From Ilumatobacteraceae bacterium (GTDB lineage Bacteria > Actinomycetota > Acidimicrobiia > Acidimicrobiales > Ilumatobacteraceae): a DNA stretch of 64,000 nt. Position 1 is the first letter of the stretch. Every line of letters begins with the position of its first letter. The stretch spans positions 47,393 through 111,392 of the forward strand of contig CBDDKF010000015.1 of the NCBI GenBank assembly GCA_965230015.1, given 5' to 3'. This document shows positions 710-56,899 of the stretch, one piece after another. Made by a program: the position numbers and the translations under genes. The notes under the pieces were generated by a model. That model had not been told where the DNA came from. It saw only the letters and a program-made list of their open reading frames with translations, and did not search any database.

Positions 710-2353
710 ATGACCGCCGACGGCCACGAGCACGACGCTGCGACGCATCACGAGATCATCGTGCTCGGCGCAGGGGTGTCGGGGATCTACCAGATCAAGC
801 GGCTGATCGACCTGGACATCGACGCCATCGTGCTCGAAGCCGACGACGACCTCGGGGGCACCTGGTACCGCAACCGGTATCCCGGCTGCCGGTTCGACTC
901 CGAGAGCTACTCCTACGGCTACTCGTTCTCGAAGGAACTCCTCGACACCTGGCATTGGAAGGAGCGGTTCTCGTCGCAACCCGAGAACCTCCGCTACCTC
1001 AACTTCGTCGCCGACATGTTCGACCTCCGGCGACACATGCGGTTCAACGCCCGGGTCGAGTCGATGCGCTGGAACGAAGACGAACGGCAGTGGCGTCTCA
1101 CCCTGACGAGTGGCGAGGCGTAGACCGCGCGGTTCGTGATCACCGGCATCGGGGTGTTGTCGACGCCGACGCTTCCCGACTACCCCGGCCTCGACGACTT
1201 CGAGGGCGATGCGTTTCACACCTACTACTGGCCGAAGGAACCGGTGGCCCTCGATGGTCGCCGGGTCGGAGTGATCGGCACCGGCGCAACCGGTATCCAA
1301 GTGATCGCTGAGATCGCCGACAAAGTGGACGAGTTGTTCGTGTTCCAGCGGCGGCCGAACTGGGCAACACCGCTGAACAACTCGGCGATCTCCGCAAAGG
1401 AGATGGACGACATCAGGGCGCGCTACGACGACATCTTCGCCGCGTGCGCGTCGACGTTCGAGGGATTCGTCCATCAGCACGAGCCGCGGCGGTTCCACGA
1501 AGCGACGGCCGAAGAACGCCGAGCCCACTGGGACGAGCTGTATGCCTCGCCGGGATTCGCCATCATGGCGGCGAACTTCCCCGACATCTTCTTCGACGAA
1601 GACGCCAACAGGGAGATGTCGAACTACGTCGCCGACCGGATCCGCGAGCGGGTACACGACCCCGAGATCGCGGAGCAACTGATCCCCACGGACCACGGCT
1701 TCGCCATGCAACGCCTCCCACTGGAGACCAACTACTACGAGGCGTACAACCGGCCCAACGTGCACCTCGTGAATCTCGCCGAAACGCCGATCGAGCGCGT
1801 GAGCGGGCGCGGCATCGTCACTGCCAACGCCGAGTACGAGCTCGATCTCATCGTGATGGCGACCGGATTCGATGCGATCACCGGCGCGTGGGATCGGATG
1901 GACATCACCGGCGTCGATGGACGTTCGTTGGCCGATGCCTGGAGCGACGGCCCGCGCACCTACTACGGGCTCATGACCCACGGGTTCCCCAACCTGCTGA
2001 TGGTCGCCGGGCCGCAGAGCGTGTCGGGGTCGACCAACTTTCCCCGCGCGATCGAAGGCGGCGTCGACTGGATCACCGACTTCGTCAGCGACGTGCGCGA
2101 GCGCGGCATCACCCGCTTCGAGGCGACCACAGCCGCCGAGCAGGAATGGGTCGACGAGGTCGTCGCTCGACAGGATCGCTTGCTGATCCGCCGGAGCCAA
2201 GGCTGGTACACGGGCTACAACCGCAACGTCGCCGGGCACGGCCAGGGTACGGCGCGTTACATGGCGTACTGGGGCGGTGCGCCCCGGTATCACGCGATGA
2301 TCAACGACCTCGCTGCCAACGGGTACCCGGGGGTGGACGTCGATCCGCGCTGA
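710..2353 (+). pseudogene. Baeyer-Villiger (cyclohexanone-type) flavin monooxygenase interrupted by a single in-frame TAG at 1121-1123
   Basis: ORFs 710-1123 and 1136-2353 share one frame and together give a typical ~547-codon BVMO. Motifs: FAD GxGxxG IIVLGAGVSGI, GGTWYRNRYPGCRFDSES, NADPH Rossmann VGVIGTGATGIQ. Read through, the junction is LTSGEA-TAG-TARFVITGIGVLSTP, which is continuous with BVMO architecture. Confidence 0.75.
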
Positions 2354-9733: not shown

Positions 9734-10441
9734 TCAATCGGCCGCGAGGGCGCTGGCGATGATCGACCAGACGTCGGGGTCCACGCCGAGCCCGAAGTGC
9801 GACGAGCCGACCTCGACATGGCGAATGTTGGTCGCCCACGGGTCGACGCACGCTTTCCAATCGACCACCCCGTCGGCCTTGGTGTAGATCGCCGTCGTCG
9901 GGAGCGCCAACGGATCGTTGCGATTGGCATCGTCTTGCATCTCGGCGATGCGGGCGCACTCGTCGGCACCGAACCGACTCGCTCCTGCGGTGAAGCTAGG
10001 TCCGCCCTGCGCCGGAGTACCGAACGTCACCAGCCGATCGACGAGATCGGGGCGGTTGCGCGCCGTTTCGCGGGCGATGACGCCGCCCAACGACCAGCCG
10101 ACCAATGCTGCGGGTCGACCATCGCCGCCCGCCACGAGTTCCTCGAGCACCGGTTCGAAGCGCTCGACGGTTGCCTCGACGTCGCTCCCATTCCTTCCGA
10201 GTTGCCACGGCACCGCGGTGTGGCCCAGCGAATTGAGGTACCAGCGCAGCGGCGCCAGGCTCTCCGACCCCGTCAACCACCCAGGAATGTCGACGACGAG
10301 CCGTCCGTCGCCGCGCGGCGCCCGTCGCAGATCGACGCTCTGGCGCAGCAAGCGGAACGGCTGAAGTGCCGTCGTCCACTCCGCAGCAAGACGATTGCGG
10401 GCGGGCGGACCGGCTGGCGACTCGGTGGTGGGCAGTTCCAT
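9734..10441 (-). CDS. Alpha/beta hydrolase (lipase/esterase-like)
   Basis: Nucleophile elbow LVGWSLGGVIA, and overall size typical of the fold. The start is uncertain (ATG 10441, 10456 or 10483). 10441 is chosen so the twin palindromes stay intergenic. The rest of ORF 9734-11020 is antisense to the TetR gene. Confidence 0.65.
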   Translation of the reverse strand: MELPTTESPAGPPARNRLAAEWTTALQPFRLLRQSVDLRRAPRGDGRLVVDIPGWLTGSESLAPLRWYLNSLGHTAVPWQLGRNGSDVEATVERFEPVLEELVAGGDGRPAALVGWSLGGVIARETARNRPDLVDRLVTFGTPAQGGPSFTAGASRFGADECARIAEMQDDANRNDPLALPTTAIYTKADGVVDWKACVDPWATNIRHVEVGSSHFGLGVDPDVWSIIASALAAD

Positions 10442-15373: not shown

Positions 15374-15751
15374 TCAGTAGTTGAACACCAGCGCGCCGCC
15401 TTGCGTGTACTCGTACACGCTCGGCGCGCCCACCACCTCGACGTTCTTCGTCCAGGTGGCGCCCGTGAGATTGCGCAGCTTGACGCAGACGGGGCAGGCA
15501 AAGAAGCGGCCGCCACGCTCGACGAACTCGGCGTGCAGGTCGGCGATCGCCGGCGCGCCGGGAACACCGATCTGCTCCGCGGCGCCATCGACTGCGATGT
15601 CCACACCGTCCTTGGTGAGCCACAGCACGGCGTCCTTGCCCGCGCGCAACGCTTCGACGCTCATCAGGTAGGCGATGAGCACGCTCTCGGGTTCGTCGGC
15701 ACCGTGGGTCAGTCCGACGAGGACCTTCTGATCGGTTGCGGTGGTCATCAC
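15374..15751 (-). CDS. DsrE/DsrF-like (COG2210-type) sulfur-relay family protein
   Basis: A 125-aa protein: VLVGLTHGADEPESV…LWLTKDGV…FFACPVCVKLR fits the DsrE-fold small-protein pattern. A 4-nt ATGA overlap with the upstream small ORF indicates coupling. Confidence 0.6.
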   Translation of the reverse strand: MMTTATDQKVLVGLTHGADEPESVLIAYLMSVEALRAGKDAVLWLTKDGVDIAVDGAAEQIGVPGAPAIADLHAEFVERGGRFFACPVCVKLRNLTGATWTKNVEVVGAPSVYEYTQGGALVFNY

Positions 15752-16008
15752 GCTGCGGCGGGCCGGTTCTGGATCAGCAAGTGGTGACGCCAGGCGCCGG
15801 GGTTGCGCACGGTGCGGCCGACGTCACGGCACCACTCGATCAAGCTGCGCCGGTTGTCGCGGTCGCAGGGCACGGCGAGAACGGCGCCATCGGTCATGTG
15901 GTCGAACGAGTGCTCGACGGCACGATGGAAGTCACGGGTGGCACCGAAGGGAGCCGAGAGCACGACGGCGTCGTAGCTCATGTGGGTGGGGGCGGTGGTG
16001 GTGAACAT
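15748..16008 (-). CDS. Small hypothetical protein (86 aa), weakly TusA-like but lacking the CPxP active-site motif
   Basis: RBS-like AAAGGAAA lies upstream of ATG 16008. MTDGAVLAVPCDRDNRRSLIEWCRDVGRTV resembles the second half of TusA/SirA proteins. Low-confidence assignment. Confidence 0.4.
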   Translation of the reverse strand: MFTTTAPTHMSYDAVVLSAPFGATRDFHRAVEHSFDHMTDGAVLAVPCDRDNRRSLIEWCRDVGRTVRNPGAWRHHLLIQNRPAAA

Positions 16009-16053
16009 TGGTCGTTTCCTTTCAGGGGATTGGTGGGTGTGAGAGATGGGTGT

Positions 16054-16860
16054 TCAGCCCGGCTTGCGAGCGATGAACGGATAGCCGTGGACGTCGAAGT
16101 TGCGGGCGTTGGCTTCGCCTCCCGCACCGCCGAACGTGTCGACTGGCGCTCCGATGCGCACGTCGACGAAACCGGCGGCTTCGAGCAGTGACTGCCAGCC
16201 TGCGCACGGCAGGCCTCCGGCGATTCAACCGGTCCACAAGTCGATGTGCCGCTACGCTTCCTCGGGCACTGGACGGCCGTTGGCGATGTCGGCGAACTGG
16301 ACGACGCCACCTGGCCGGAGCACCCGGAACACCTCGGCGAACACCGCGTGCTTGTCGGGGGCCAGGTTGATCACGCCGTTGGAGATCACGACATCGACCG
16401 ATGCGTCATCGAAGGGCAGTTCCTCGATGTAGCCCTCGCGGAACTCGACGTTGTTGAGGTCGAGATGCTGCGCCGTGTCACGGGCCTTGGTGAGCATTGC
16501 GGGCGTCATGTCGATGCCGACGACCTGCCCGGTTGGGCCCACGGCATGAGCAGCGAGGAACGCATCCATTCCTGCGCCCGAACCGAGGTCGACGACACGT
16601 TCGCCTGCTTCGAGGCAACGCAGCTCGAACGGGTTGGCCACGCCGGCGAACGACTCGACCGCCACGTCGGGCAGGATCTCGATGTCGGTCGCGGCGTACC
16701 GGCACCGATCGGCGATGAACCGTCCGGTGTGGAAGTGGAAGTCACCAGCGGGTTCGATGGCGACGGCGGCGTACTTGGCCTGTACCTCGGTGCGCAGTTC
16801 GCACACGTCGACGACGTCGGGCGAGGCGCTGAAGTTGGCGTGTTCGGTCATGGCGAACAC
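16054..16860 (-). pseudogene. ArsM-like class I SAM methyltransferase whose frame continues through TAG (16252-16254) and TGA (16225-16227); either a pseudogene or a recoded (selenocysteine) gene
   Basis: SAM motif VVDLGSGAGMDAF, then VDVVISNGVINLAPDK…LRPGGVVQFADI. The same frame continues PVPEEA-TAG-RHIDLWTG-TGA-IAGGLPCAGWQSLLEAAGFVDVRIGAP…FIARKPG-stop at 16054. The TGA aligns with the Cys of the ArsM LW.GC(I/L)AGA motif. Confidence 0.6.
16198..16214 (-). other. Candidate SECIS-like hairpin GCCUGC-CGUGC-GCAGGC, 10 nt downstream of the in-frame UGA of the ArsM-like gene
   Basis: 6-bp GC stem and 5-nt loop with G at the second loop position, read directly on the minus strand. Confidence 0.4.
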
Positions 16861-16929: not shown

Positions 16930-19900
16930 TCAGAGGGCTACAGGCGAGCGCGCGTCGAGCAAGCCCGAGGCCGTGGCGATCGTGTAGGCGGCAACATCGG
17001 CCGGCCCCAGCCGCTGGCCGTGGTCCCACCAGCGGGCGAAGTCGTCGGGATACTCACGGCGCAGGCGGTCGGCTTGGAGCAGTGCGTACTTGGCGCTGAA
17101 CCCTGCCCGATACCCGGCGGCGTCGCGTGCGCCGAGCACGGTGACCGCCGCATCGGGGCGCTCGGCTCGCTCGAACAGTGCACCAGCGGTGCCCAGACCC
17201 GACAGCGCCCAATGCCACAGACCTCGTTCGGAAGCGAACGCCTCGACCTGGATCATCGCGTCGAGGGCGCGATCGAGCGTGCCGTGGGCGACCATGGCGA
17301 ATGCCCGGATGCTGCGACCGGTCATCGACGAGTTGACCAGGCCGAACCGGTCCGACAGCTCGATGCACGCATCGGCGTCGGCGATGGCACCTTCGCCGTC
17401 GGTCCACATCCGACTCAGCGCCCGTGTACCCAGGGCCAGTGAGCGCGCCGATGCGCCGAGATCGGCCGACAACACGTCGAGCAGATGGGCCACATCGCGG
17501 AGATCGTGATCGTCGGCGAAGTCCATCGTCGAGCGCGTGTGCATCGCCCCGAACTTCGCCTGCACAGCCTCGGGGGCAGGGTTGTCGATGATCCGATCGA
17601 GCCACATGCGCGCGTCGTCGAGGTCGCCGTCGGTGTACCTGCGCCAGGCCACCGCCCACGCCGCCTCGGCAAGTTCGGGCTCGGCCTCGGCAACGGCGTG
17701 CGACAGTCGGTCGCTCAGTGCCCAATCGCCATGGAAGTTGGCCAACACGGCCCAGCCCGCATACGCCCGAGCTTCCTGGTCGCTGGTGTAGCTGGTCGTG
17801 CCAACGTCGAGCAGTTGGTCGTACCACTCGAGCATCTCGAAGCGCATCGCCACGTTGCCGTACAAGCCAGACCTGGAGAGCAACTCGATCACATCGGTGC
17901 GCCGCTCGAGTTGTGCCGCCATGAACACGGCCGCACGCAGATCGTCCCACCGATCGGCGAAGCGCCGCACGCCGTCGTTGTCGGGCGCGCCGATCGTTTC
18001 CCGCCACACGTCGACCAAGGCGACGAGGTGGTCGACGTATCGATGCCGCACTGCGTCGGTCAATCGTTCGCGGGTGAACAACCGGACGCTCTCGAGCAGC
18101 CGATAGCGAGGCCCAAGCTCGGACGGCTCCGGGCCGATCAACAACGATCGCTGCGTGAGCTCGTCGACCATGGCGATGCGTTCGAGCGGCGACGCATCGC
18201 TCATGGCGCCGATGTCGTTCATATCGAACCGGTCGGCGAACACGCTGAGCGCGGTCAGGAACTCGCGCACGGGACGATCGAGGGCGTTCACCGACCAGGC
18301 GATCGTGGTGCGCAGCGTCTGTTGGTGCTCGAGCCCGCCCGGCTCTGCGTCGGTGAGGAACTCGAACCGGTCGGCGAGCAGCGACTCGAGCGTGGGTAGA
18401 TCGATCGACCGGGCGCGGGCAGCTGCCAGGCGCACGGCGAGAGGAAGGTCGTCGAGGCGGGCACAGATACGCGACACGGCCGGATCGGCGGCGTCGATCG
18501 GCTGTCCGTGACGGCGAGCTTCGCTGACGAACAGCTCGATCGCTGCGGCCCGCTCGAGGGGGTGGATTCGTCGCACCACCTCGCCAGCCGAGCCGAGCGG
18601 CGCCCGCGACGTCGCCAGGACGCGCACACGGGGACACTCGGCGAGTATCTGGTCGATGAGTGGGGCCACCCCATCGCGAACGTGTTCGCAGTTGTCCACC
18701 AGGAGCAGCGCATCGCGCTCGCCGAGCGTGCTGACAATCGAGTCGGCGACCGTGGCGGTGGCGTGCTGAAGGCCGCCGATGGCGGTCAGGATCTCCTGCC
18801 CGGCGGCTCCATCGCTGTCGAGCGTGCCGAGTTGGCAGAGCCATGCACCACCCGTGAACCGGTCGGCGAGATCGGCGCCGACGTGCAGCGCCAAGTGCGT
18901 CTTGCCCGCGCCGCCGGGCCCGACGAGCGTGACGATCCGTGCACGTTGCAGTTCGCCGCCCAACTCAGCGCGTTCAACCTCACGGCCGAACGTGTGCGTG
19001 CGCAGCGGTGGAATCGGTCGTCCGCCGACGCGCATCGACCGTGGCGGCGCAGCGGCAACTTCGAGGTCGGGGGCGGTGACACGCCACAGCGTGAGCGGTG
19101 CCACATCGGCGAGCCGGTAGAGACCGAGATCGACGAACTCGACACCATCGCCGACGTCGGAGGCCATCTCGGCCACCACCGGCGAACACAGGATCTGATC
19201 CCCCGAGCCGGCATCCATGATGCGTGTGGTTCGGTCGACCGGCCGGCCGTACCAGCCGCCCTCACGTTGACGTGCTTCACCCGTATCGATGCCGATGCGC
19301 ATCCGCGGTCGTGCCCCAGGCCACTCGGTGGTCTGCAACCGCCGCTGCGCCTCGACCGAGGCTCGCACTGCAGCAGCAACGGAGGTGAAGGCGGCGCACA
19401 CGCCGTGGGCGGGACCCGTGAACGGCACTCCGCCATGCTCGATCATCGCCGACGACACGATCTCGCCGTACTGCTCGTGCAGCGTGAGATCTGCCTGTTG
19501 ATCAGCCCCTTGATCGGGTGCGGCCGACGCGGGGTCCGTCGAGCCCGCCAGATCGGTGACGACGAAGGTGCGCATCGCCGAGCCAGCCTCGGCTCCCGCC
19601 GCCGCTTGATCCCGAATGGCGACCGCGGCCGGGCTCGGGACCACGCCGAGCTGCTCGTCGAGCGTGCGTTCGAGTACCGCGAAGCGACGGGCCACGGCGT
19701 CGGCATCGCCGCGCGCCAACGACTGACGCATCAGCGCGATGTGTGCCGATTCGTCGGTCGGGTCGAGGACGAGCACCGCTTCCCAACGGCCGGCGGCACG
19801 CAGCAACTCGATCTGGCGCAGCAACAGCTCGTTGCGCGCCTCGACCGTCCACTCGTCGTAGGGCAGGTCGGGAAGCAACTCGCCGGCGGCTGCGGCAGCG

Positions 19901-20250
19901 AGTGCGTCGTCGTCGGAGTCGTGGTGCCGCACGGCGATGGCGTCGACCCACACGTCGTGCTCGGGGAGGAGGGCGAGCACGTCGTCGCGCACGACGATGG
20001 CCTCGCGCACACCGAGAGCTTGGCGGGCGTACGTGGCAGCCTTGTTCAGCCGGTTCATAGCGGCGCCGCGTTCGGCGTCGGGCCACAACGCGTCGAGCAC
20101 CTGCTCACGATGTCGTCGCCGCTGAGGACTCAGCGCCAACAACGCCACCAGGTCGGCGCCACTACGACGCTCGAACGACGCGGCGGTCACGTTGAGGCCA
20201 TCGATGTCGACCGAGAAGTCACCGAGCAGGCGAACCCGCACCACACCCAC
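16930..20250 (-). CDS. Large multidomain regulator: SARP/BTAD DNA-binding domain + class III nucleotide cyclase-like domain + NB-ARC/AAA P-loop ATPase + TPR-like C-terminal region
   Basis: N-terminus VRVRLLGDFSVDIDG…RSGADLVALLAL (SARP wHTH) followed by a BTAD-like helical part. FVVTDLAGST…RMRIGIDTGEA is cyclase-like. Walker A is LVGPGGAGKTHLAL. LLLVDNCEHV is NB-ARC-like. GTG starts at 20250/20244/20241; the longer ORF to 21114 is antisense to the neighbouring lipoprotein gene. Confidence 0.75.
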   Translation of the reverse strand: MGVVRVRLLGDFSVDIDGLNVTAASFERRSGADLVALLALSPQRRRHREQVLDALWPDAERGAAMNRLNKAATYARQALGVREAIVVRDDVLALLPEHDVWVDAIAVRHHDSDDDALAAAAAGELLPDLPYDEWTVEARNELLLRQIELLRAAGRWEAVLVLDPTDESAHIALMRQSLARGDADAVARRFAVLERTLDEQLGVVPSPAAVAIRDQAAAGAEAGSAMRTFVVTDLAGSTDPASAAPDQGADQQADLTLHEQYGEIVSSAMIEHGGVPFTGPAHGVCAAFTSVAAAVRASVEAQRRLQTTEWPGARPRMRIGIDTGEARQREGGWYGRPVDRTTRIMDAGSGDQILCSPVVAEMASDVGDGVEFVDLGLYRLADVAPLTLWRVTAPDLEVAAAPPRSMRVGGRPIPPLRTHTFGREVERAELGGELQRARIVTLVGPGGAGKTHLALHVGADLADRFTGGAWLCQLGTLDSDGAAGQEILTAIGGLQHATATVADSIVSTLGERDALLLVDNCEHVRDGVAPLIDQILAECPRVRVLATSRAPLGSAGEVVRRIHPLERAAAIELFVSEARRHGQPIDAADPAVSRICARLDDLPLAVRLAAARARSIDLPTLESLLADRFEFLTDAEPGGLEHQQTLRTTIAWSVNALDRPVREFLTALSVFADRFDMNDIGAMSDASPLERIAMVDELTQRSLLIGPEPSELGPRYRLLESVRLFTRERLTDAVRHRYVDHLVALVDVWRETIGAPDNDGVRRFADRWDDLRAAVFMAAQLERRTDVIELLSRSGLYGNVAMRFEMLEWYDQLLDVGTTSYTSDQEARAYAGWAVLANFHGDWALSDRLSHAVAEAEPELAEAAWAVAWRRYTDGDLDDARMWLDRIIDNPAPEAVQAKFGAMHTRSTMDFADDHDLRDVAHLLDVLSADLGASARSLALGTRALSRMWTDGEGAIADADACIELSDRFGLVNSSMTGRSIRAFAMVAHGTLDRALDAMIQVEAFASERGLWHWALSGLGTAGALFERAERPDAAVTVLGARDAAGYRAGFSAKYALLQADRLRREYPDDFARWWDHGQRLGPADVAAYTIATASGLLDARSPVAL

Positions 20251-25085: not shown

Positions 25086-25250
25086 GTCGCTCCGTTCTGC
25101 TGTTGTTCGTTCTGATGTTGTTCGTTCGGCAGTCGCTCGTTCGGCGCCGTTGTCGGCGGCCGACGCGGAGACTAACGAAGCGCCGTCACACACTGCCGTG
25201 GCGCATACCGTCACTCCTCGGCACCGGGTTCGATTGGTCGACCTGGCAAT

Positions 25251-26387
25251 GTGGGAGGCGTGATCCTCGACACGCTCGACATCAACACCGACACGTTCTT
25301 CGCCGGAACCGGCTGGCAGATCAAGCCCGAAGGAGCGTGCAAGGGCGAAGTGTGCGTCCCGCTGCCCGACGGTTTCTCGCTCGAGTACGCCGCGCAGCGA
25401 CTGGGCATGGCCGTGGTGGCCGACGAACCGTCGGGTCGTTGGGCGCTGGGCCCGGAGTCGCTCAATGGTCAAGCCCTCGTCACCGCCGAGGCGCCGGAGC
25501 TGGTACTCGACGACATCGATGGCCACGAGTTCCGCCTGTCGTCGCTGCGTGGCAAGAAGGTGGTGCTCGTCGCGTGGGCGCCGTATTGAGGTTGCCGCTA
25601 TGACCTGCCCGGGTGGCAGGCACTCCACGAAGAGCTGAGCCCGCAGGGCGTCGAGATCGTCACCGTGTCGCTCGAACTGAGCGGTCCAGAGGTGTCACGC
25701 CCGTTCATCGACGCGGCGTCGCCGACGCACCCGTCGTTGCTCGACCCGACACATCAGCTGGGTGCGTTGTTCGGTGTGGTCAACATCCCGAACGTGATCT
25801 GGATCGACGAGCAAGGAACGATCGTGCGGCCCGCCGAGCCCGGGTTCCCTGGCGGCGACCACTACCCCGACTGGCTGCGCAGCTACCTCGATGAACGCGA
25901 CGCAGCGGCGGAATCGAAGGCGAAAGAAATCGAAGCGACCGATCCGGAGCTCGCGGCGAAGATGCGCGGCGGACAGGATCAACAGTCGTACGCCGATGCG
26001 ATCCGCGACTGGGCGACCAACGGTGCCGACAGCCGCTTCGCCTTGTCGCCCGACGAGGTGATCGCGGCGTCGCAACCACGTCCTGCTGCCGTGTCGGAAG
26101 CCGCCGCGCACTTCGAGCTCGCCAACGACCTGTGGCGCAGCGACCAACGAGACGCGGCGATCCCCCACTTCAACGCCGCGCATCGGCTGCAACCCGACAA
26201 CTGGACCTACAAGCGCCAAGCGTGGTCGCTCGTCGGCAACGAACGCGCCGGCGGCGGCGAACTCGGTCGGTTCAACCAGGGTCCGCTCCCCGGCGAAGAG
26301 GACGACTGGCCGTTCGAGGGCAACTTCGCCGACGAAGCCGGCAGCACCCCGGCTGGCGACTACTACCCCAAGACCCTCGACGTCTGA
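25251..26387 (+). CDS. Thioredoxin-fold (TlpA/ResA/redoxin-like) protein with an in-frame TGA at 25587-25589 at the redox-active position (candidate selenoprotein, motif W-A-P-Y-U-G-C)
   Basis: ORFs 25251-25589 and 25665-26387 are in the same frame. Read through, the sequence is LRGKKVVLVAWAPY-TGA-GCRYDLPGWQALHEELSPQGVEIVTVSLE…NIPNVIWIDEQGTIV, a continuous redoxin fold with the TGA where the first CxxC-type Cys is expected. Confidence 0.75.
25604..25620 (+). other. Candidate bacterial SECIS hairpin CCUGCC-CGGGU-GGCAGG, 14 nt downstream of the in-frame UGA
   Basis: 6-bp GC stem and 5-nt loop with G at loop positions 2-4, read directly. Confidence 0.5.
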
Positions 26388-26394: not shown

Positions 26395-27270
26395 TCACGG
26401 GCGCGACGGGAAGATCCCCACCGCGCAGATCGTGTAGGTCAACCCGTTCGGCGCAGCCGCGCGCAGGTCCGGTACGGCAAACACCGTCATTGCATCACCG
26501 CCGTAGAGCGTTCCGAGCAGCGCGTACAGCGCCTGGTAGCTGTTGATCGGGAGCAGCTGTCCGTTCGCCAGGACTTGTCCGTGCGAGGTCGTTCCCGCGG
26601 TCAGGATGATCTCTCCGAGCGTGCATTCGCCGCCAGAACCAGCGGCGGCCACCTCGGTATTCGTCCCGAACACGTCGGCGCCTGGACCCGGAGGTCCTGG
26701 GGGGCCAGCGGGGCCGGGGACACCAGCGGTCGCCGACAACTCGCTGAGCGACGATCCCGAGTAGAAGCCGACCACGTCGGCCAACACGTTGACGGTGCCG
26801 TTCTGGTTGAACAGGGTGATCTGGCCGTCGGTCGACAACTTGACATCGACCTTGTTCGGCGTGGGCGATTGGCCCGGCAACCAGTTCAGGCTCGACACGG
26901 TGGGCACCTCGGTCACGTCCGACGGGTAGATGCGTAGGTTCGACTGCGCGGTCGGATCGGTGATGGTCACGTTCATCGCGACGGCGATGGCCGACGACGG
27001 GATCGAACAGTTGCCGACATCGCCGGTCACCTGCTGCACGTGGACGTTCGACTCGCCCGCGGCCAACGGTGTCTTCTTGTCGCCGTCGGGCTCGGCACCC
27101 GGCCGGAAGTCGAACAGGCGGCACGGCTCGATCGGGAACAGGGTGGCATCCTCGTCGCCGGGAGCGGCCCCCGCCGACCACGGCTCGACGACGAGCAGCG
27201 CGCACACCAGCGCCAACACTCCGGTACTCGCCATCCAGGCGATGCTCGGGATACGGGAAAGACGGTCCAT
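26395..27270 (-). CDS. Secreted protein: conserved N-terminal domain (paralogous to the two genes at 28.9-31.8 kb) + short collagen-like GPx run + C-terminal phage tail-collar-like domain
   Basis: Signal/anchor IAWMASTGVLALVCALLVV. The N-domain runs …AVAMNVTITDPTAQSNLRIYPSD…PNKVDVKLSTDGQITLFNQNGTVNVLADVVGFYS. Then GVPGPAGPPGPPGPG, and a tail-collar-like C-terminus GEIILTAG…LANGQLLPINSYQALYALLGTLYGGD…FAVPDLR. Start at ATG 27270. Confidence 0.7.
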   Translation of the reverse strand: MDRLSRIPSIAWMASTGVLALVCALLVVEPWSAGAAPGDEDATLFPIEPCRLFDFRPGAEPDGDKKTPLAAGESNVHVQQVTGDVGNCSIPSSAIAVAMNVTITDPTAQSNLRIYPSDVTEVPTVSSLNWLPGQSPTPNKVDVKLSTDGQITLFNQNGTVNVLADVVGFYSGSSLSELSATAGVPGPAGPPGPPGPGADVFGTNTEVAAAGSGGECTLGEIILTAGTTSHGQVLANGQLLPINSYQALYALLGTLYGGDAMTVFAVPDLRAAAPNGLTYTICAVGIFPSRP

Positions 27271-27390
27271 GGTCGACTCCTCCAGTACGGACAGCCGGAC
27301 CCCACGCCGGCTGTCGTCGAGCGACAGCCTGTCACGCCACACACCACCCCCGAACCAGCTCCGGTCCTGATCCACCCGCTCGCCGAAAAA

Positions 27391-27433
27391 CCGGGGATTT
27401 CATGCGCCTGGCGCATGATGTCGCGAACAGAAC
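27391..27433 (+). repeat. 43-nt repeat element, copy a (CCGGGGATT-palindrome-CGCGAACAGAAC)
   Basis: CCGGGGATTTCATGCGCCTGGCGCATGATGTCGCGAACAGAAC. The internal perfect palindrome TCATGCGCC-T-GGCGCATGA is at 27400-27418. The element ends 41 nt upstream of ATG 27474. Confidence 0.8.
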
Positions 27434-27473
27434 GGGGGGTTGTCCGGTGACCGTGCGGTGCCGATACAGATGT

Positions 27474-28472
27474 ATGGGAGATCGCACAAGCGGGCGAGTC
27501 GGCGCGGTGCTGGTTGCTGCCGCGGCGCTGATGATCTCGGTTGTCGCAGTCGCCGCACCGACACGTGTTGACGGTCCAGCGAGCGTGACCGAACGAGCGG
27601 TGCGCCTCGGCGTGCAGGGTGGACCGACGATCGCTGGTTGTCCAGTGTTCCCGTCGGACAACGCCTGGAACACACCGATCGACGGCGCTCCGCTCCATCC
27701 GCGCAGCGACTCGATGATCGCCACGATCCACGACAACGGTGGCGACTTCCTGCATCCTGACTTCGGCGAGAACCCCAACTACGGGATTCCGTTCGTGGTG
27801 GTCCCCGAGTCGCAGACACCGGTGCCGATCACCTACGACGCCTACGGCAGCGAGAGCGATCCGGGCCCCTTTCCCATCCCGCTCGACGCGCCCATCGAAG
27901 GAGAGCCGGGCGCAACGAGCGGGGATCGGCACGTCATCGCCGTGCAACGCGGCACATGCGAACTGTTCGAGCTGTACGTCGCTCGACCCTCGAGCACTGG
28001 ATGGACCGCCGCGTCTGGCGCACGGTTCAACCTCCGGTCCAACGATCTCCGCCCACTCGGTTGGACCAGTGCTGACGCTGCGGGCCTCCCGATCTTCCCC
28101 GGACTGGTCCGCTACGAGGAGGTCGCCGCGGGCGAGATCCGCCATGCGATCCGCGTGACCTTCAGTCGCACCCAACGCGGCTACATCCTCCCGGCGACGC
28201 ACTTCGCGTCGAACGACACCAACCCCGATCTGCCACCGATGGGGCTGCGCCTACGGCTCAAGTCGAGCTACGACATAGACCAGCTCACCGGCCAGGCACG
28301 GGTGATCGCCACGGCAATGCAGCGCTACGGGTTGATCGTGGCCGACAACGGATCGAACTGGTACTTCCAAGGAGCCCCGAGCCCCGGTTGGGACGACGAC
28401 GACCTCAACCAGCTGAAGAGCGTGCCCGGCACCGCGTTCGAGGTGGTCGATACCGGGCCAGTGCGTCGCTAA
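27474..28472 (+). CDS. Secreted hypothetical protein (332 aa)
   Basis: Signal-like N-terminus RVGAVLVAAAALMISVVAVAAP. The rest is coding-like with no motif I can name. ATG 27474 is chosen within the longer ORF 27069-28472. Confidence 0.55.
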   Translation: MGDRTSGRVGAVLVAAAALMISVVAVAAPTRVDGPASVTERAVRLGVQGGPTIAGCPVFPSDNAWNTPIDGAPLHPRSDSMIATIHDNGGDFLHPDFGENPNYGIPFVVVPESQTPVPITYDAYGSESDPGPFPIPLDAPIEGEPGATSGDRHVIAVQRGTCELFELYVARPSSTGWTAASGARFNLRSNDLRPLGWTSADAAGLPIFPGLVRYEEVAAGEIRHAIRVTFSRTQRGYILPATHFASNDTNPDLPPMGLRLRLKSSYDIDQLTGQARVIATAMQRYGLIVADNGSNWYFQGAPSPGWDDDDLNQLKSVPGTAFEVVDTGPVRR

Positions 28473-28918
28473 CCGTGCCCCTCAGCTGGTCGGCGCGGCG
28501 GGAACAGTCGCACCACGAGGTACACCACCACGAACGGCAACCCGAAGCGAAAGGCCGTGACGAGCAAGGTCAGCGCGAAGTCCTGACCTGAGCCGATCAC
28601 GTCGGCAACTTCGACCTCACGACCGTCGGTGAATACGCACGCCGCAGGTTGACCACCGGTGGTGAAGCTGCCGTCGCCCTGCTGAATTGAGGCCACGTCG
28701 CCCTCCCGTCCGCACAACGGTTCGTAGACCACCCTGTTCACGACCCACGTCGCGCCGAGCACGATCGGCACGTACGCGATCACGAAGAAGCCGAGAATCC
28801 AGATCGCACGTCGAGCACTCGGATGGGCGCCACCGCCTCCCGAGCCGCTTGCTGCAGCGACTCCCTCGGCCTCGGCCCGCTCGTCGGCGTCGAGGCCCTC
28901 GTACGGATCGTTGCTCAC
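28469..28918 (-). CDS. Small membrane protein (149 aa, two predicted TM helices), translationally coupled to the upstream fibre-protein gene
   Basis: GTG 28918 overlaps the upstream TGA (GTGA). Hydrophobic segments are IWILGFFVIAYVPIVLGATWVV and FALTLLVTAFRFGLPFVVVYLVV. Confidence 0.55.
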   Translation of the reverse strand: MSNDPYEGLDADERAEAEGVAAASGSGGGGAHPSARRAIWILGFFVIAYVPIVLGATWVVNRVVYEPLCGREGDVASIQQGDGSFTTGGQPAACVFTDGREVEVADVIGSGQDFALTLLVTAFRFGLPFVVVYLVVRLFPPRRPAEGHG

Positions 28919-30417
28919 AGCGGACCCCCAGGGCCTTCGCCACAGACCCGAGCCACGTTGGCCACCGAGCACGTGACACCGTCGCCACCGGCGATCGACT
29001 CGTTCCCACCGTTGGCCTCGTTCAACAACCCGCCAGCGACCGCCGAGTTCTGAGCCGAGGCCGTGTTGTTCGAACCACCGACTACCGACGACGCGGTCCC
29101 GGTGGCCTGATTGGCATTGCCACCAGACACCGACGCGCTCTCGCCCGAGGCCACGCTGAAGTTGCCGCCAGACACCGACGCGTAGTCCCCGGCTGCCGTG
29201 TTGTGATCGCCGCCCACTACCGATGACTGTTGGCCACTGGCGATGTTGCTATTGCCACCAGACACCGATGCACCGCGCCCGGTAGCGGCGTTTCCGATCC
29301 CACCTGACACGGTTGCATGTTCAGCCGACGCGGCGTTGAAGGAGCCGCCAACCACGGCAGCTCCGGACTGCGATGCTTCGTTGTTGACGCCCCCGAACAC
29401 CGCGGCAAACAGACCAGACGCGGCATTGTTGCGACCACCAGCGATCGACGAGAGCGCATCGCCTGCGGTGTTGCCAAACCCACCGGCAACGGTCGCACCA
29501 TCTCCGGACGCCGCATTCGCCACCCCACCAACGACACTCGCATACGGCCCGCTGACCGTGTTCCCTGAGCCGCCGAGCAGACCCGAGAAGCTGGTCCAGT
29601 CGTGGTCGAAGCCGACCACGAGGTTGTGGCTGCCACTGCGCGTTTCAGGTGTGCCCGGGTCCTCGTTGTAGCCAATCATTAGATTTCCGACGCCATTGCA
29701 CGCCTCGAAGCCGATTGCGTTGCACTCGGTGTTGTTGCTGCCGTCGACGACCTGCACATTGACACCGCTGAAGCGGACCGTGCGGTGGCCCTCGACATCG
29801 AGCACGGTGACGTCGGCGAGCTTCGCTTCGAGCGCCGCGATCCTCGAGTCTTGTTCGGCGAGTCGGGTGTGGAGTTCGCTGAGGCTGGCCGTGGAGTAGT
29901 AGCCGACCACATCACCCACCACCGACACCTGACCGTTCTGGTTGAACAACTTGATCGCCCCCGACGGCGACAACGACACATCCACCTTGTTCGGAAACGG
30001 CGCCTGACCCGCCGAGAAGTTCAAGTTGGAGATCAACGGCACCTCGGTCAGATCCGCCGGAAACAACCGCAGATTCGACTGCGCCGTCGGACCCACCGCA
30101 GTGACATTCATCGCCACCCCCACCGCATCGCCCGGGATCGCCAACTCCCCCACACACTCACCAACACCACCGGTGATCTGCTGCACAAACACCTCACCAG
30201 CACCCAACGGCTCAGACCGCGGACCCACCTGATTCGGCGCCGGCCGATAATCGAACGCTCGACACCCCGCCGTCGGCACAAACGTCGCATCCGAATCACC
30301 CGGCGCGGCATCCACCCGCCACGCCGCCAACAACGCAACGAGTGCGGCGATCCCAGAAGCCACGACGAGCCCGATCAACAGCCGTCGAACGCCGACGGTC
30401 GAGACCGCCGCGCCCAT
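28915..30417 (-). CDS. Secreted/anchored fibre-like protein B: N-terminal conserved domain + coiled-coil neck + 15-residue SVSGGxxNxAxGxxS beta-roll repeats (YadA-head/tail-fibre-like)
   Basis: ATG 30417 shares one base with the stop of the upstream paralog. Anchor LLIGLVVASGIAALVALLAA. Neck LSELHTRLAEQDSRIAALEAKLADV. There are more than 12 repeats such as ASVSGGNSNIASGQQ / SSVVGGDHNTAAGDY / ASVSGGNANQATGTA. The Cys-containing C-terminus is GGDGVTCS…ARVCGEGPGGPL. Confidence 0.7.
   Translation of the reverse strand: MGAAVSTVGVRRLLIGLVVASGIAALVALLAAWRVDAAPGDSDATFVPTAGCRAFDYRPAPNQVGPRSEPLGAGEVFVQQITGGVGECVGELAIPGDAVGVAMNVTAVGPTAQSNLRLFPADLTEVPLISNLNFSAGQAPFPNKVDVSLSPSGAIKLFNQNGQVSVVGDVVGYYSTASLSELHTRLAEQDSRIAALEAKLADVTVLDVEGHRTVRFSGVNVQVVDGSNNTECNAIGFEACNGVGNLMIGYNEDPGTPETRSGSHNLVVGFDHDWTSFSGLLGGSGNTVSGPYASVVGGVANAASGDGATVAGGFGNTAGDALSSIAGGRNNAASGLFAAVFGGVNNEASQSGAAVVGGSFNAASAEHATVSGGIGNAATGRGASVSGGNSNIASGQQSSVVGGDHNTAAGDYASVSGGNFSVASGESASVSGGNANQATGTASSVVGGSNNTASAQNSAVAGGLLNEANGGNESIAGGDGVTCSVANVARVCGEGPGGPL
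29864..30332. repeat. 469-bp direct repeat, copy 1 (1 mismatch versus 31276-31744)
   Basis: Constant offset of 1412 bp, shown by identical ORF-track entries (29912-30157 = 31324-31569; 30026-30232 = 31438-31644). The single mismatch is at 30307/31719. Covers the N-terminal domain coding region of fibre gene B. Confidence 0.9.
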
Positions 30418-38546: not shown

Positions 38547-39674
38547 TCAGCAGATGCGCGGGAGTTGTTCGCCGAGCGGGCGATCGATCACGCGGGTAGC
38601 GCCCAAACCCGTGCGGGCGACGACCACTCCGGGATGCTCGTCGACGACCGTGCCGATGCGCACGGCGCCGCTACCGGCGGGATCGGTGCGCATCGCCTCG
38701 ACGACGGCATCGGCGTGCTCGGCCGGCACGAAGGCGACGAGTCGTCCTTCGTTGGCCACGTGGATCGGATCGAGTCCGAGGAAGCCACACGCCGACCGCA
38801 CCGACTCGGGGATCGGCACCGCCCGCTCGTCGTACTCGACGCCGACGCCCGCGGTCTCGGCGAGTTCACACAGGCTGGCGGCGAGGCCGCCTCGAGTGCA
38901 GTCGCGCACTGCGTGGATGTCGGGGCACGCGGCGAGTGAGGCGGCAACGAGATCGGCCAGCGGGGCGGTGTCGGACGCGATCTCGGTCCCGAACTCCAGA
39001 CCCTCACGAACGCTGAGTACCGCGACGCCGTGCGCGCCGATGTCGCCCGACACGATGATCGCGTCGCCTGGTCGAATACGCGACGGGGCAAGGTCGACAC
39101 CGTCGGGGATCACGCCGACGCCGGCGGTATTGATGTACACGCCGTCGCCGTGCCCCTGCTCGACCACTTTGGTGTCGCCGGTGACCAGCTGCACCCCCGC
39201 CCGCTCGGCAGCGCGACCCATCGCCGCGGCGACCTGCTGCAAGACCTCGAGTTCGAGCCCTTCCTCGAGGATGAAGCCGGTCGACAAGGCAACCGGTCGG
39301 GCGCCGCTGGTGGCGAGGTCGTTGACCGTGCCGTTGACCGCCAGCTCGCCGATGTTGCCGCCGGGAAAGAACAGCGGCTGTACGACATAGCTGTCGGTGG
39401 TGAATGCCAGCCGACCGCCCGCCGACCCACCAACGACGAGATCGAGCATCGCGGCGTCGGTTGCTTGCGCCGTCGATGCGGCCGATCCAAACGCGGGGAG
39501 GAAGAGGTGCTCGATCAACTCGCCCGAGAGCTGGCCTCCGCCGCCGTGGCCGAGCACGATGCGTTCCTGATCACGGAGCGGCATCGGACACGACCAGCCT
39601 TCGATATCGGCCGTGGTCGCCGCCTCGGACGAAGCCGACACCGTTGCGTCAACCGTCGCATCAACGTCGGACAT
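38547..39674 (-). CDS. hypE: [NiFe]-hydrogenase maturation protein HypE (carbamoyl dehydratase)
   Basis: PurM-like fold with ERIVLGHGGGG…, GDTKVV and DCTRGGLA, and the diagnostic C-terminal PRIC. ATG 39674 shares one base with the hypD stop. Confidence 0.9.
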   Translation of the reverse strand: MSDVDATVDATVSASSEAATTADIEGWSCPMPLRDQERIVLGHGGGGQLSGELIEHLFLPAFGSAASTAQATDAAMLDLVVGGSAGGRLAFTTDSYVVQPLFFPGGNIGELAVNGTVNDLATSGARPVALSTGFILEEGLELEVLQQVAAAMGRAAERAGVQLVTGDTKVVEQGHGDGVYINTAGVGVIPDGVDLAPSRIRPGDAIIVSGDIGAHGVAVLSVREGLEFGTEIASDTAPLADLVAASLAACPDIHAVRDCTRGGLAASLCELAETAGVGVEYDERAVPIPESVRSACGFLGLDPIHVANEGRLVAFVPAEHADAVVEAMRTDPAGSGAVRIGTVVDEHPGVVVARTGLGATRVIDRPLGEQLPRIC

Positions 39675-40789
39675 CAGGATCGTGCTCCCACCGTGACCGG
39701 CGTGTCGATCCGGCGGTACTGGAAGTACGCCGCACAGGCACCCTCGCTCGAGACCATCGTGGCGCCCATCGGGGTGCGCGGCGTGCAGCTCGTACCGAAG
39801 CACTCACACTCGTCGGGTTTGATCAAGCCTTGGAGCACCTCGCCGGCACGACAGGCGGCCGGCTCGTCGACGTGCAACTCGCCCACGTCGAATCGGCGTT
39901 CGGCGTCGAACTCGGCGTAGTCGCTCAACAACCGCCATCCACTCGCGGGGATCATGCCGATACCCCGCCACTGTCGATCGCACACGTCGAACACGTCGGC
40001 CAACATCTCTTGGGCTGCCGGATTGCCTTCGGCGCGGACGGCGCGGGCGTAGGCGTTCTCTACCTCACCTCGGCCCTCTTCGAGCTGGGCGACCGTCCGG
40101 CGGATCCCGTCGAGCACATCGAGCGGCTCGAAGCCGGTGACCACGATCGGCACGCCGAACCGTTCAGCCAACGGTTCGTATTGCGCGGTGCCCATCACCG
40201 TGCACACGTGTCCGGCGGCGAGGAAGCCGTTGACCCGTGAGGTCCCAGAGGTCATCAGCGCCTCGATCGCCGGTGGCACCAGCACGTGGCTGACGAGCAT
40301 CGAGAAGTTGTCGAGGTTGCGTTGCCGGGCCTGGAACACGGCCATTGCGTTGGCAGGCGCGGTGGTTTCGAATCCGACGCCGAAGAACACGACCTGTTTG
40401 TCGGGGTGGTCGCTGGCGACTTCAACCGCGTCGAGTGGCGAGTACACGACGCGCACGTCGCCTCCGCGGGCCTTCACCGAGAACAGGTCGTGGGTACTGC
40501 CCGGCACGCGCAACATGTCGCCGAACGAGCAGAAGATCACACCGGGCCGGGCGGCGATCGCCAGCGCACGATCGATCATCTCGAGCGGCGTGACACACAC
40601 CGGACAACCGGGTCCGTGGATCAGCTCGATCTGCTCGGGGAGCAACTGGTCGATGCCGTTGCGGATGATCGAGTGGGTCTGCCCACCGCACACCTCCATG
40701 ATCGCCCACTGTTGCGTAGCGGTGCGCTCGATGTCGGCGAACAGTCCGGCGGCCAGCTCGGGGTCGTGAAACTCGTCGAGATACTTCAC
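39674..40789 (-). CDS. hypD: [NiFe]-hydrogenase maturation protein HypD
   Basis: [33 protein letters not shown], and C-terminal FQYR-type motifs. GTG 40789 overlaps the hypC stop (GTGA). Confidence 0.9.
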
Positions 40790-41097
40790 GAAGCCGGCTC
40801 GATTCGTGCGGGCTCGCTTCGTGCCGTTTCGACCTGAGCCATCATCGAGTCGTCGAGCCCCAGCTCGTCGTCGAGGAGCCCGACGTCGCGCATCATCTTC
40901 AACGTCTCGAGCGCCGACGCCTTGTCGAGCAGCGTGATCGCAAAGCCGGCGTGAATGATCGTGTAGTCGCCGACGTCGGCGTCGGGGACGTAAGCCAAGC
41001 AGATGTCCTTTTGCACGCCGCCGAAATCGACGGTGGCCATCTTGGTCCCGCGTTCATCGCGGATGTCGGTGACCTTCCCGGGGACTCCGAGACACAT
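40786..41097 (-). CDS. hypC: [NiFe]-hydrogenase assembly chaperone HypC/HupF family
   Basis: N-terminal MCLGVPGKV with the essential Cys2. 103 aa. Confidence 0.9.
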
Positions 41098-43487: not shown

Positions 43488-44653
43488 GACGCGCTCCACA
43501 CCATGACGCGGTTGTTGCCCGAGTCGGCGATCGCCAGGTGATCGGACGCGGCGTTGCCGCCGGCGCGGAACGACATGCCGTACGGCCAGCAACACGTGTC
43601 GTGCTCGACGCGATCCCAACGGTTCTCGCCGTTGCCGTTCTCGTCGGGCTGACCGAGCACCCGGTCGAACCCGGCGCCGGACGGCTGGGCGGCAAATGTG
43701 GTGGCCGGTTCGTCGATCACCGCGACCCGGTTGTTCGAGGTGTCACCGACGAACAGGCGCCCGTCGGGCGCGTGGGCGATCGCGTACGGGAAGCGCAGCG
43801 CGGCGCGCCCCTGGGGCCGGTACGGGCTCTCGAACGCGCTGGTGAAGTCGGGCTGACCGAACACCACGTCGGCAGGACGATCGGCGTCGACGGCGCCGCG
43901 CCACCCGAGCACTCGATGATTGCCGGCATCGGCCACAAAGAACAGGTCGCCCGACGACGCGAGCGCATGCGGCCAGCGCATCGAGTCGGCGGCCACGTCG
44001 TCGTCGCGGTTCTCACCGCGGGCGGTGAGGTTCGGTTGACCGAGCACGACGTCGGCGCCCTGCCCCGGCTCCGGGAGACCGTCGCGCCAGCCGAGCACCC
44101 GGCGGTTGCCGGTGTCAGCCACCCAGAACACACCGTCGATCTCGGCGATGCCAAACGGCCAATAGAAACGCTGCGGCCCACACCCCTCATCGGTGCCGTC
44201 GAGGCTGCGGGCCGGCTCCTGTCCGAGCACCGTTGGCGCGACACCCTGGATCGCCGCGTCGATGTCGTCCCACACCAACACCCGGTGATGCCACGCATCG
44301 GCCACGACGAACCGACCGTCGGCCGTCTCCACCATCCCGGTTGGCAGGTGGAACAGGTTGGGCCCCTCCGTGATCATGTCCGGCTGGCCGATCACATGAT
44401 CGGCATCCGCGTGATCCGCGTGGGGCACCGGCGTGTCCCACACGAGCAGTCGGTGGTTGCCGGTGTCGGCGGCGACCACTCGCTCGCCGGTGAGCAGCAC
44501 CGCACGCGGCGCGTACATCGTCGATGCACTCGGCGACGCGTCGGGCAGGGCCAAACCCATCGAACTCGGCCCGCCGAGCCAGCGCACCGGACGGTACGGC
44601 CCGTCGGCCGGCCACTGCGTGGCGCCAGCGGTCGACGTGAGGAGATCGGTCAC
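43484..44653 (-). CDS. NHL-repeat beta-propeller protein, hydrogenase-cluster accessory
   Basis: Six repeats of the type VADTGNHRLLVWD / VADAWHHRVLVWD / VADTGNRRVLGW / VADAGNHRVLGW / VGDTSNNRVAV / IADSGNNRVMVW. 4-nt overlaps on both sides. Confidence 0.8.
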   Translation of the reverse strand: MTDLLTSTAGATQWPADGPYRPVRWLGGPSSMGLALPDASPSASTMYAPRAVLLTGERVVAADTGNHRLLVWDTPVPHADHADADHVIGQPDMITEGPNLFHLPTGMVETADGRFVVADAWHHRVLVWDDIDAAIQGVAPTVLGQEPARSLDGTDEGCGPQRFYWPFGIAEIDGVFWVADTGNRRVLGWRDGLPEPGQGADVVLGQPNLTARGENRDDDVAADSMRWPHALASSGDLFFVADAGNHRVLGWRGAVDADRPADVVFGQPDFTSAFESPYRPQGRAALRFPYAIAHAPDGRLFVGDTSNNRVAVIDEPATTFAAQPSGAGFDRVLGQPDENGNGENRWDRVEHDTCCWPYGMSFRAGGNAASDHLAIADSGNNRVMVWSAS

Positions 44654-46505: not shown

Positions 46506-46506
46506 G

Positions 46507-46704
46507 TCACATTCCCCATCCCGGTCCGGCATCGCGTTCGGCGGTGGCCTGAATGAACTTGGCGGCGACTTCGGCTTTGGCGCGCGAGTGGTACTCGCCA
46601 ACGCGGTGGCGCACGGCGCCGTCGGGAAACACCACGTCGAGGATCACGACGAACCTCCCCGACTCTTCGACCACTTCGGTCGATGCAAACGGTTCATCGC
46701 TCAC
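46507..46704 (-). CDS. Small conserved-looking hypothetical protein (65 aa) inside the hydrogenase operon
   Basis: ATGA overlap with the protease gene, with the stop 1 nt from the next start. The sequence MSDEPFASTEVVEESGRFVVILDVVFPDGAVRHRVGEYHSRAKAEVAAKFI is not low-complexity. Confidence 0.5.
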   Translation of the reverse strand: MSDEPFASTEVVEESGRFVVILDVVFPDGAVRHRVGEYHSRAKAEVAAKFIQATAERDAGPGWGM

Positions 46705-47198: not shown

Positions 47199-47256
47199 TC
47201 GTCTCCCCTTTCAGTTCACGCCGACCCGGCGGCCGACGTATCTCACTGCGCCTGAA

Positions 47257-48861: not shown

Positions 48862-48894
48862 GTTGGTCGTGCTCCGTTCAATCGTGTGCGTCGC

Positions 48895-49866: not shown

Positions 49867-49888
49867 GCGTGGTCCTTTCGGTGGGAGT

Positions 49889-50500: not shown

Positions 50501-50529
50501 CGATGGATCCCCTCTCCGGATTCGTTCTC

Positions 50530-50549
50530 GTGCCAGATCTGCCTGGCAC
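50530..50549. promoter_or_regulatory. Inverted repeat GTGCCAG-atctgc-CTGGCAC just upstream of the hydrogenase operon
   Basis: 7-bp arms read directly, 30 bp upstream of ATG 50500. A second IR, CAGGTC-n10-GACCTG, is at 50631-50652 near the LysR gene. Confidence 0.35.
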
Positions 50550-56897: not shown

Positions 56898-56899
56898 CG

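Follow-up and report, generated by a model that had tools for sequence, protein, structure and literature searches.

The gene described here encodes an ArsM-like S-adenosylmethionine (SAM) methyltransferase and lies on the minus strand of a 64,000-nucleotide stretch of DNA from an Ilumatobacteraceae bacterium (assembly GCA_965230015.1, contig CBDDKF010000015.1). This whole 64-kb stretch is referred to as the window, and all coordinates are positions in it. The reading frame of the gene contains two internal stop codons, a TGA and a TAG that stands nine codons 5' of it. Comparison with related loci makes it very probable that this is a genuine UGA-selenocysteine (Sec) gene, the UGA being followed by a hairpin of the selenocysteine insertion sequence (SECIS) type. 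The TAG is probably a real and very recent nonsense allele, which would have arisen by a one-base change, most simply CAG to TAG. The features of the gene are as follows:

16054..16851, minus strand: open reading frame (ORF) of the ArsM-like SAM methyltransferase, 265 codons plus stop, with one in-frame TAG and one in-frame TGA (predicted Sec)
16252-16254, minus strand: amber codon TAG within the frame, at a column that is variable and non-catalytic; most likely a nonsense change of a single base
16225-16227, minus strand: UGA, predicted to encode selenocysteine in the motif U-I-A-G, where ArsM has Cys224
16197-16215, minus strand: hairpin of the SECIS type, GGCCUGC-CGUGC-GCAGGCU, with a 7-bp stem and a loop of 5 nt, beginning 9 nt 3' of the UGA
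16054-16056, minus strand: final stop TGA of the methyltransferase, from sequence and translation

The frame opens at GTG 16860 or at ATG 16851. Since the homologs begin with MTEH or MNEH, the real start is probably ATG 16851 (MTEH...) and not the GTG. Translation of 16054-16860 on the minus strand yielded ...GRPVPEEA-TAG-RHIDLWTG-TGA-IAGGLPCAGWQSLLEAAGFVDVRIGAPVDTFGGAGGEANARNFDVHGYPFIARKPG-stop, the residues that lead up to the TAG reading ...ANGRPVPEEA. This agreed base for base with an earlier annotation of the same DNA (the original prediction), which had given the frame PVPEEA-TAG-RHIDLWTG-TGA...ARKPG-stop, its coordinates and the motif NGVINL. The Pfam profile Methyltransf_31 (class-I methyltransferase) matched the product with E=3e-34, and the match ran through both the TAG and the TGA. 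The product as written has 199 residues, without the Sec loop and the C-terminal domain.

The UGA codon and its hairpin

Homologs of the methyltransferase were searched for among 5.8 billion proteins and 19 of them were aligned with it; the close ones were of two kinds. The first kind comprised proteins of 258-270 residues with Cys (Trp in two of them) at the TGA column. The second kind consisted of eleven proteins of 206-222 residues, 70-79% identical to the window protein, that ended exactly at ...DLWTG. In the DNA of these shortened homologs a TGA was found, followed by an open frame for the same C-terminal 56 residues. The codon at this column was also read in the 60 related loci listed from GTDB species-representative genomes, where it was TGA in 46 and TGC in 14. 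The TGA forms were spread over Actinomycetota, Chloroflexota, Gemmatimonadota, Acidobacteriota, Proteobacteria and others. Alignment with the solved ArsM structures 5evj and 4fr0 placed the TGA at the Cys of GEC(L/I)AGAL, which is C224. The original prediction had the TGA in place of the ArsM Cys, with Cys or Sec to be looked for at the same column in homologs, and both points are borne out by these alignments, most orthologs having TGA.

Selection on the segment after the TGA was estimated from the ratio of nonsynonymous to synonymous substitution rates (dN/dS, ω), which was 0.13-0.49 against six relatives, compared with 0.18-0.31 for the upstream part. The nearest relative, L103 (JGI 3300007151, Ga0101649_1001770), is a contig that starts inside the C-terminal tail, so that 34 codons were comparable. 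These last 34 codons differed by 8 synonymous changes and 1 nonsynonymous change (dS 0.39, ω 0.034), whereas a tail left untranslated on the window's branch since the split should have gathered about 15 nonsynonymous changes. The tail of the methyltransferase evolves under strong purifying selection. In the original prediction the 65 codons 3' of the TAG had been taken for the genuine C-terminus, and they can be kept as such: homologs align through them, and their evolution is purifying, not neutral, against the six relatives and against L103.

The alternative that the TGA is the plain stop of a 208-residue methyltransferase, with 56 untranslated codons downstream, is the annotation given in most databases and would suit the form in which the eleven short homologs were deposited, as proteins ending at LWTG. 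However, all loci have an open frame after the TGA, whose translation aligns with the C-terminal part of the full-length Cys-type homologs, ω on the tail is low in both comparisons given above, the hairpin covaries (see below) and the Cys/TGA column is that of the catalytic Cys224 of ArsM. This alternative was refuted by the comparative data and retains practically no probability.

The core of the hairpin, GCCUGC-CGUGC-GCAGGC, spans positions 16198-16214, and in the fold an extra G·U pair brings the stem to 7 bp. A start 9 nt after the TGA is common to the TGA forms (the same position in 30 loci). The hairpin of the other subclade is GCUCUGCU-GGA-AGCAGAGC, and the peptide encoded at this place differs between the two subclades (GLPCAGW and ALLEAEL). 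Pairing was observed in 97.5% of the cells in 23 sequences, against 24-44% in a control in which the 3' partner was slid. Three of the seven pairs showed compensatory changes, 24 cells were changed on both sides, and the covariation score was reached by none of 500 shuffles. In the Cys-type homologs no common hairpin was present at that position. The energy z-score of the hairpin region (0.04) is uninformative in G+C-rich sequence, so the SECIS call rests on the comparative evidence, and by this evidence the hairpin behaves as a bacterial SECIS element. The hairpin had been likened in the original prediction to one in a redoxin gene of the window; both were found again, and the structure proved to be conserved with covariation.

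That redoxin gene is a second selenoprotein gene of the window, and its features are the following:

~25250-26387, plus strand: selenoprotein gene, ResA-like WAxxUGC, with TGA at 25587-25589 and a TPR-containing C-terminal extension
25604-25620, plus strand: hairpin CCUGCC-CGGGU-GGCAGG of the ResA-like gene, from sequence

The product scored 387 bits with the NCBIfam model NF041054 ('ResA-like WAxxUGC motif-containing protein'; cutoff 300), the profile spanning the TGA, and the AhpC-TSA profile restarted at its position 40 directly after TGA 25587-25589. NF041054 is a known, curated selenoprotein family, and its presence in the same window indicates that the organism decodes UGA as Sec. Neither a tRNA nor a Sec-machinery gene was detected within the 64-kb window using ARAGORN and Pfam scans of the ORFs, and Rfam and ARAGORN gave no matches on the window. 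A gene at 38550-39803 was considered as a possible SelD and was identified as HypE.

Two observations were made on UGA codons in related genomes. P0005 (from Blastococcus deserti) and P0006 are full-length homologs with Trp at the Sec column (LWTGWIAGG), and the Trp codon TGG is one step from TGA; in Blastococcus, a genus reported for UAG-Sec, UGA may have turned into a sense codon after the switch. The closest GTDB relative listed, L004 (Actinomycetota metagenome-assembled genome P01_F01_bin.57), contains at 10315-10317 a TGA within a glutathione-peroxidase-like ORF (VNTASR-TGA-GLTPQY), which is likely a Sec gene.

The two in-frame TAG codons

At the position of the methyltransferase TAG the relatives have CAG, CAA, CGG, CGA, GTC, ATG or CTT and never a gap, several of them having CAG, and the residues found in this column are Q, R, K, V, M, L, A and I. 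CAG is one step from TAG, the change being a single transition. Among the family matches listed, only the product of this genome (P0001, 199 aa) ends at the TAG. The next column, at which distant Cys-type homologs (AVCEIDLWTGC) have their second Cys, is Arg in all of the Sec subclade. When 208 kb of the relatives' loci were scanned, only gene junctions and no in-frame TAG were found. Within the window TAG serves as an ordinary terminator: the DUF899, acid phosphatase, PALP, TetR regulator and HypA genes stop with it a few residues from the end of their Pfam profiles, and it makes up about 20% of the stops and is not depleted. About 45 other genes of the window were checked against Pfam, and neither a frameshift nor an in-frame stop was found in them.

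A second in-frame TAG was detected by scanning the whole window for stops with coding signal on both sides. It lies in the following gene:

710-2353, plus strand: Baeyer-Villiger monooxygenase (BVMO) gene, intact except for a TAG at 1121-1123

The BVMO was aligned to OTEMO (3uov) straight through the TAG, with E=8e-157 and no gap. The corresponding codon in relatives is TAC, CAC or TTC (Y, H or F), and the column is variable. No other in-frame TAG was found in three scans of the window. Both TAGs are preceded by Glu-Ala, the contexts being GAG GCG TAG and GAA GCG TAG. A frameshift or a split gene was rejected at both sites, where the homologs align through without a gap and in the same frame.

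Because the tail of the methyltransferase still matches purifying selection against L103, its TAG is either very young, not real, or read through. The first of these, a real and very recent nonsense allele, is the probable one. In a genome of 68% G+C, common codons such as CAG, TAC and GAG lead to TAG more easily than to the other stops, and both TAG-bearing genes are accessory, which was counted in favour of real nonsense alleles. The original prediction, too, had seen in the TAG either a recent inactivation or a sequence error, with a sense codon to be looked for in homologs; such a codon is present in all relatives, and the verdict is the same. Several points weigh against a real nonsense allele. 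The second TAG lies in an intact BVMO gene about 15 kb away, the Glu-Ala-TAG context is shared and both columns are variable, and for ordinary decay it is unusual that two nonsense alleles, both new and both of one codon type, occur with no frameshift or other kind of disruption in about 45 genes. Much less probable is that both TAGs were introduced by base calling, polishing or consensus building, or come from minority strains captured by the assembler, and that the gene is intact in the living organism. The surroundings of the TAG are intact, the SECIS is identical to that of the relatives, ω on the tail is 0.034 and the downstream genes are conserved, all of which was counted for an error; the common GAR-GCG-TAG context could point to a sequence-specific artefact, and the source is apparently a single public assembly, the databases containing no further copy of the species. 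By our own estimate, a stop results from about 3-4% of random substitutions. For two errors of this kind, dozens of errors would have to be present in the 64 kb, yet about 45 genes are without a frameshift or other defect, which argues against a generally error-ridden assembly. A systematic miscall at the motif was rejected as well, since GCGCAG is abundant in the window (106 copies, with 25 of GCGTAG) and not depleted, so there is no systematic C to T change at it, and the two sites share no motif beyond GAR-GCG. Moreover, the TAG probably arose from CAG or CGG in the methyltransferase and from TAC, CAC or TTC in the BVMO, so that different base changes would be needed.

Decoding of the UAG by an amber-suppressor tRNA, of the pyrrolysine (Pyl) type or another, is an improbable explanation, and more so than an error. 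The mRNA would then be recoded twice within nine codons, and the BVMO would be full length too. Two in-frame TAGs in otherwise intact, conserved genes, without any other kind of disruption, would fit such decoding, as would their location at substitution-tolerant columns and the undiminished purifying selection downstream; the existence of bacteria using both Sec and Pyl, and of two PylRS genes reported from Actinobacteria (PMC11764691), was also counted in its favour. However, TAG ends at least six genes of the window where their Pfam profiles end (with the share of stops given above), and the TAG columns are unconserved, with different residues in the relatives of the two genes (Q/R/K/V/M and Y/H/F). 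No tRNA with a CUA anticodon was found in the window or in the relatives' loci, no Pyl or methylamine-methyltransferase gene was found among the ORFs scanned, and the 208 kb of related genomes were free of in-frame TAGs. A readthrough-promoting structure after the BVMO TAG was considered and rejected, none being shared with the relatives. Global reassignment of TAG was rejected in the same way: besides its use at the profile ends of at least six genes, read-through would fuse the TetR regulator to a HAD hydrolase. That the TAG encodes selenocysteine, as in Geodermatophilaceae with a tRNA-Sec of anticodon CUA, is close to refuted and hardly credible. UAG-Sec is documented in Geodermatophilus and Blastococcus (PMC5330540), which was counted for it, and the methyltransferase would then have two Sec residues; double-Sec ArsM-type proteins do exist (NF041536, NF041537, NF047649), and the distant Cys-type homologs have a second Cys beside the TAG column. 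Against this, UGA is the codon at the two Sec sites of the window, each of which is followed by a separate hairpin, and since the Sec codons of the genome are UGA, the Geodermatophilaceae type of decoding is not applicable. The TAG stands one position before the second Cys column, which is Arg in the whole Sec subclade, and the residues aligned with the TAG of the BVMO are Val, Ile or Tyr and not Cys. The hairpin loop is about 43 nt from the TAG, outside the range of 16-37 nt usual for bacterial SECIS elements. The window shares with the UAG-Sec (PMC5330540) and Pyl (PMC11764691) systems an in-frame UAG in an otherwise intact actinobacterial gene. In those systems, however, the UAGs are found again in orthologs and occupy Cys/Sec or Pyl columns that are conserved, whereas the TAG of the window is at a variable column, is unique to this genome and stands beside a UGA-Sec codon.

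Enzyme class and neighbouring genes

The best NCBIfam match of the methyltransferase was PRK11873 arsenite methyltransferase (NF008823), with 231.6 bits, below the cutoff of 263. The next three models were all curated ArsM-type selenoproteins (NF041537 ArsM/AhpD, NF041536 ArsM/DUF2284 and NF047649 MTase/UXPK-star, which are fused forms), and their matches were likewise below the cutoff (220 against 510, 200.5 against 575 and 198 against 460). The SAM-binding Rossmann domain is present (Methyltransf_31; aligned to 5evj and 4fr0). In the alignment to solved ArsM the motif FWGCGNP is replaced by FAGVANP (C72 is Val), SNCVINL by SNGVINL (C174 is Gly) and C224 by the predicted Sec. These replacements are clade-wide, the C72 equivalent being Val or Thr and the C174 equivalent Gly in all 60 loci listed, and the N-terminal part of the clade contains an invariant HFHTG motif.

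One published working criterion for ArsM requires three or more of its four conserved cysteines, which are C44, C72, C174 and C224 (PMC5552862). In the window protein C72, C174 and C224 are replaced, while the C44 region is outside the HMMER alignment. The clade is called ArsM-like and not ArsM for this reason, and As(III) is an unlikely substrate of it, judging from the residues. The usual label 'arsenite methyltransferase' is probably wrong for the clade, and the original prediction was right in not treating the protein as a canonical arsenite methyltransferase on account of the Gly, to which the Val at C72 can be added. Taken together, the sequences point to a large clade of ArsM-like SAM methyltransferases that is mostly Sec-containing.

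Compared with canonical ArsM/AS3MT (CmArsM 4fr0/4kw7 and Chlamydomonas 5evj), the protein has the same Rossmann core VLDLGSGxGxD and C-terminal domain (E=1e-29 to 5evj), with the SNxVINL and GxCxAGA motifs in the same order, but it differs in FAGVANP, SNGVINL and a Sec for C224. ArsM selenoproteins with the motif UxxG have been catalogued since the Global Ocean Sampling (GOS) selenoproteome study (PMC2398784) and in later reviews (PMC9312934, PMC13188914), and the locus is a further ArsM-like UxxG selenoprotein of this type. It shares with the ArsM-family selenoproteins (PRK11873, UxxG) the fold, a Sec site U-I-A-G at the C224-type Cys and a UGA with a SECIS hairpin. In contrast to them, it is below every curated cutoff and is single-domain with a single Sec; it is also without the C72 and C174 equivalents and has the invariant HFHTG, a CxxC DsrE-like partner and the TAG interruption.

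The genes that adjoin the methyltransferase are the following:

15748..16008, minus strand: putative TusA-fold protein of 86 aa, APFGAT where CPxP is expected; a rare accessory gene
15374..15748, minus strand: DsrE-like protein of 124 aa, invariant C85-P-V-C88 (PF02635)
16930..20100, minus strand: large P-loop/TPR-type regulator, the ORF directly upstream; its N-terminal boundary is uncertain

The stop of the small gene and the ATG of the DsrE-like gene overlap (TGATG), and 45 nt with the ribosome-binding site AAAGGAAA separate the methyltransferase from the small gene. The tight coupling of both genes claimed in the original prediction therefore stands for the small and the DsrE-like gene, but not for the methyltransferase and the small gene. 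The 86-aa protein gave no Pfam or NCBIfam match, PF01206 included, and it lacks the CPxP Cys; only 7 relatives were found among 1.84 billion representatives. An AlphaFold model of it, built from a 7-sequence alignment, had a pLDDT of 76. When this model was searched with Foldseek, the top three PDB matches were E. coli TusA/YhhP, with probabilities of 0.93-0.99 and TM scores of 0.58-0.66 but weak E-values (0.06-0.17). Alignment to TusA with hhalign was in the expected register and weak (probability 10%), and pairwise BLAST against E. coli TusA gave nothing meaningful. The identification as a TusA-like protein without the cysteine, already made in the original prediction, is moderately supported by this predicted fold, which would be the two-layer α/β fold of TusA. 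The gene occurs as an occasional insert: L004 has it between its methyltransferase and DsrE-like genes and L103 has it too, but L001 and L002 do not. In L103 (positions 1-486) the tail of the methyltransferase is identical at 33 of 34 residues and the TusA-fold gene is 79% identical; there, in place of a DsrE-like gene, an unrelated 246-aa ORF and an IF-2B-family gene come after the TusA-fold gene.

The DsrE-like protein, also named as such in the original prediction, matched Pfam PF02635 with 33.9 bits, above the cutoff of 22.7 bits. Its homologs are named 'DsrE family protein' or 'predicted peroxiredoxin', and the CPVC motif is invariant in 20 of them. A DsrE-like homolog (63-86% identical) is located directly 3' of the Sec-methyltransferase in L001, L002, L003, L004 and L009. 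DsrE-like UxxC selenoproteins have been catalogued (PMC13188914, PMC2398784), the DsrE-like protein of the window having CxxC instead. No Pfam match at E<1e-5 was obtained for the upstream regulator (16930..20100); in L002 the orthologous methyltransferase is preceded, at the equivalent place, by a 911-aa AAA_16 regulator. Neither an IscS nor a rhodanese gene was seen near the locus. The neighbourhood resembles the TusA-DsrE(FH) sulfur relay in having a putative TusA-like fold and a DsrE/DsrF-family domain. It differs from it in that the TusA-fold protein is without the persulfide-carrying Cys of CPxP, and the DsrE-like protein is a single subunit, unlike the DsrEFH heterohexamer.

In the intact gene, translation would begin at ATG 16851, the UGA would be decoded as Sec by SelB and Sec-tRNA under the direction of the 7-bp hairpin, and the protein would end at 16054 with 265 residues. 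Its only active-site chalcogen ligand would be the Sec at the position of ArsM Cys224. Such a site might serve a substrate that needs a single Se-X bond, for instance a sulfane-sulfur or selenium species or a soft metalloid; As(III) is probably not this substrate, because the other canonical arsenite-binding cysteines are absent. The Sec may hold the substrate while SAM methylates it, and the co-transcribed CxxC DsrE-like protein could be the donor or the resolving reductant, a step in which the cysteine-less TusA-fold protein may help. This chemistry, drawn from the gene neighbourhood and from the residues present or missing, is put forward with low confidence, like the sulfur/selenium relay plus methylation function suggested in the original prediction.

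The wider window and the ArsM-like clade

A hydrogen-oxidation and CO2-fixation island occupies 38550-57000 of the window. It includes genes for HypE, HypD, HypF, an NHL-repeat protein, a NifU-like protein, the HycI protease, two LysR regulators, FBPase and HypA, together with those for the large (47260-48894) and small (48898-50208) subunits of a [NiFe]-hydrogenase and for the large and small subunits of RuBisCO (54541-56507). On the minus strand, a phage tail collar domain gene (26398-27399) adjoins about 3 kb (region 26398-30417) without any ORF showing the usual signal of the genome in G+C at third codon positions (GC3), and these 3 kb may be DNA of foreign origin or in decay. At 60965-62338 on the plus strand another SAM methyltransferase is encoded, which has an Rv2258c-like winged-helix domain and is unrelated to the ArsM-like one.

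As regards the organism, the amber codon matters only if it is read through, and the ordinary explanation is the more likely one. If amber suppression were true, an actinobacterium of the acidimicrobial type would read through UAG at sites where ordinary enzymes, here the Sec-methyltransferase and the BVMO, tolerate substitution. As regards the family, the large ArsM-like clade appears to be mostly of the Sec type and is usually annotated as truncated, eleven close homologs having been deposited as proteins of about 208 residues that end at the UGA. The conserved pairing with a DsrE-like protein of invariant CxxC suggests an unstudied system for the methylation of a chalcogen or a metalloid.

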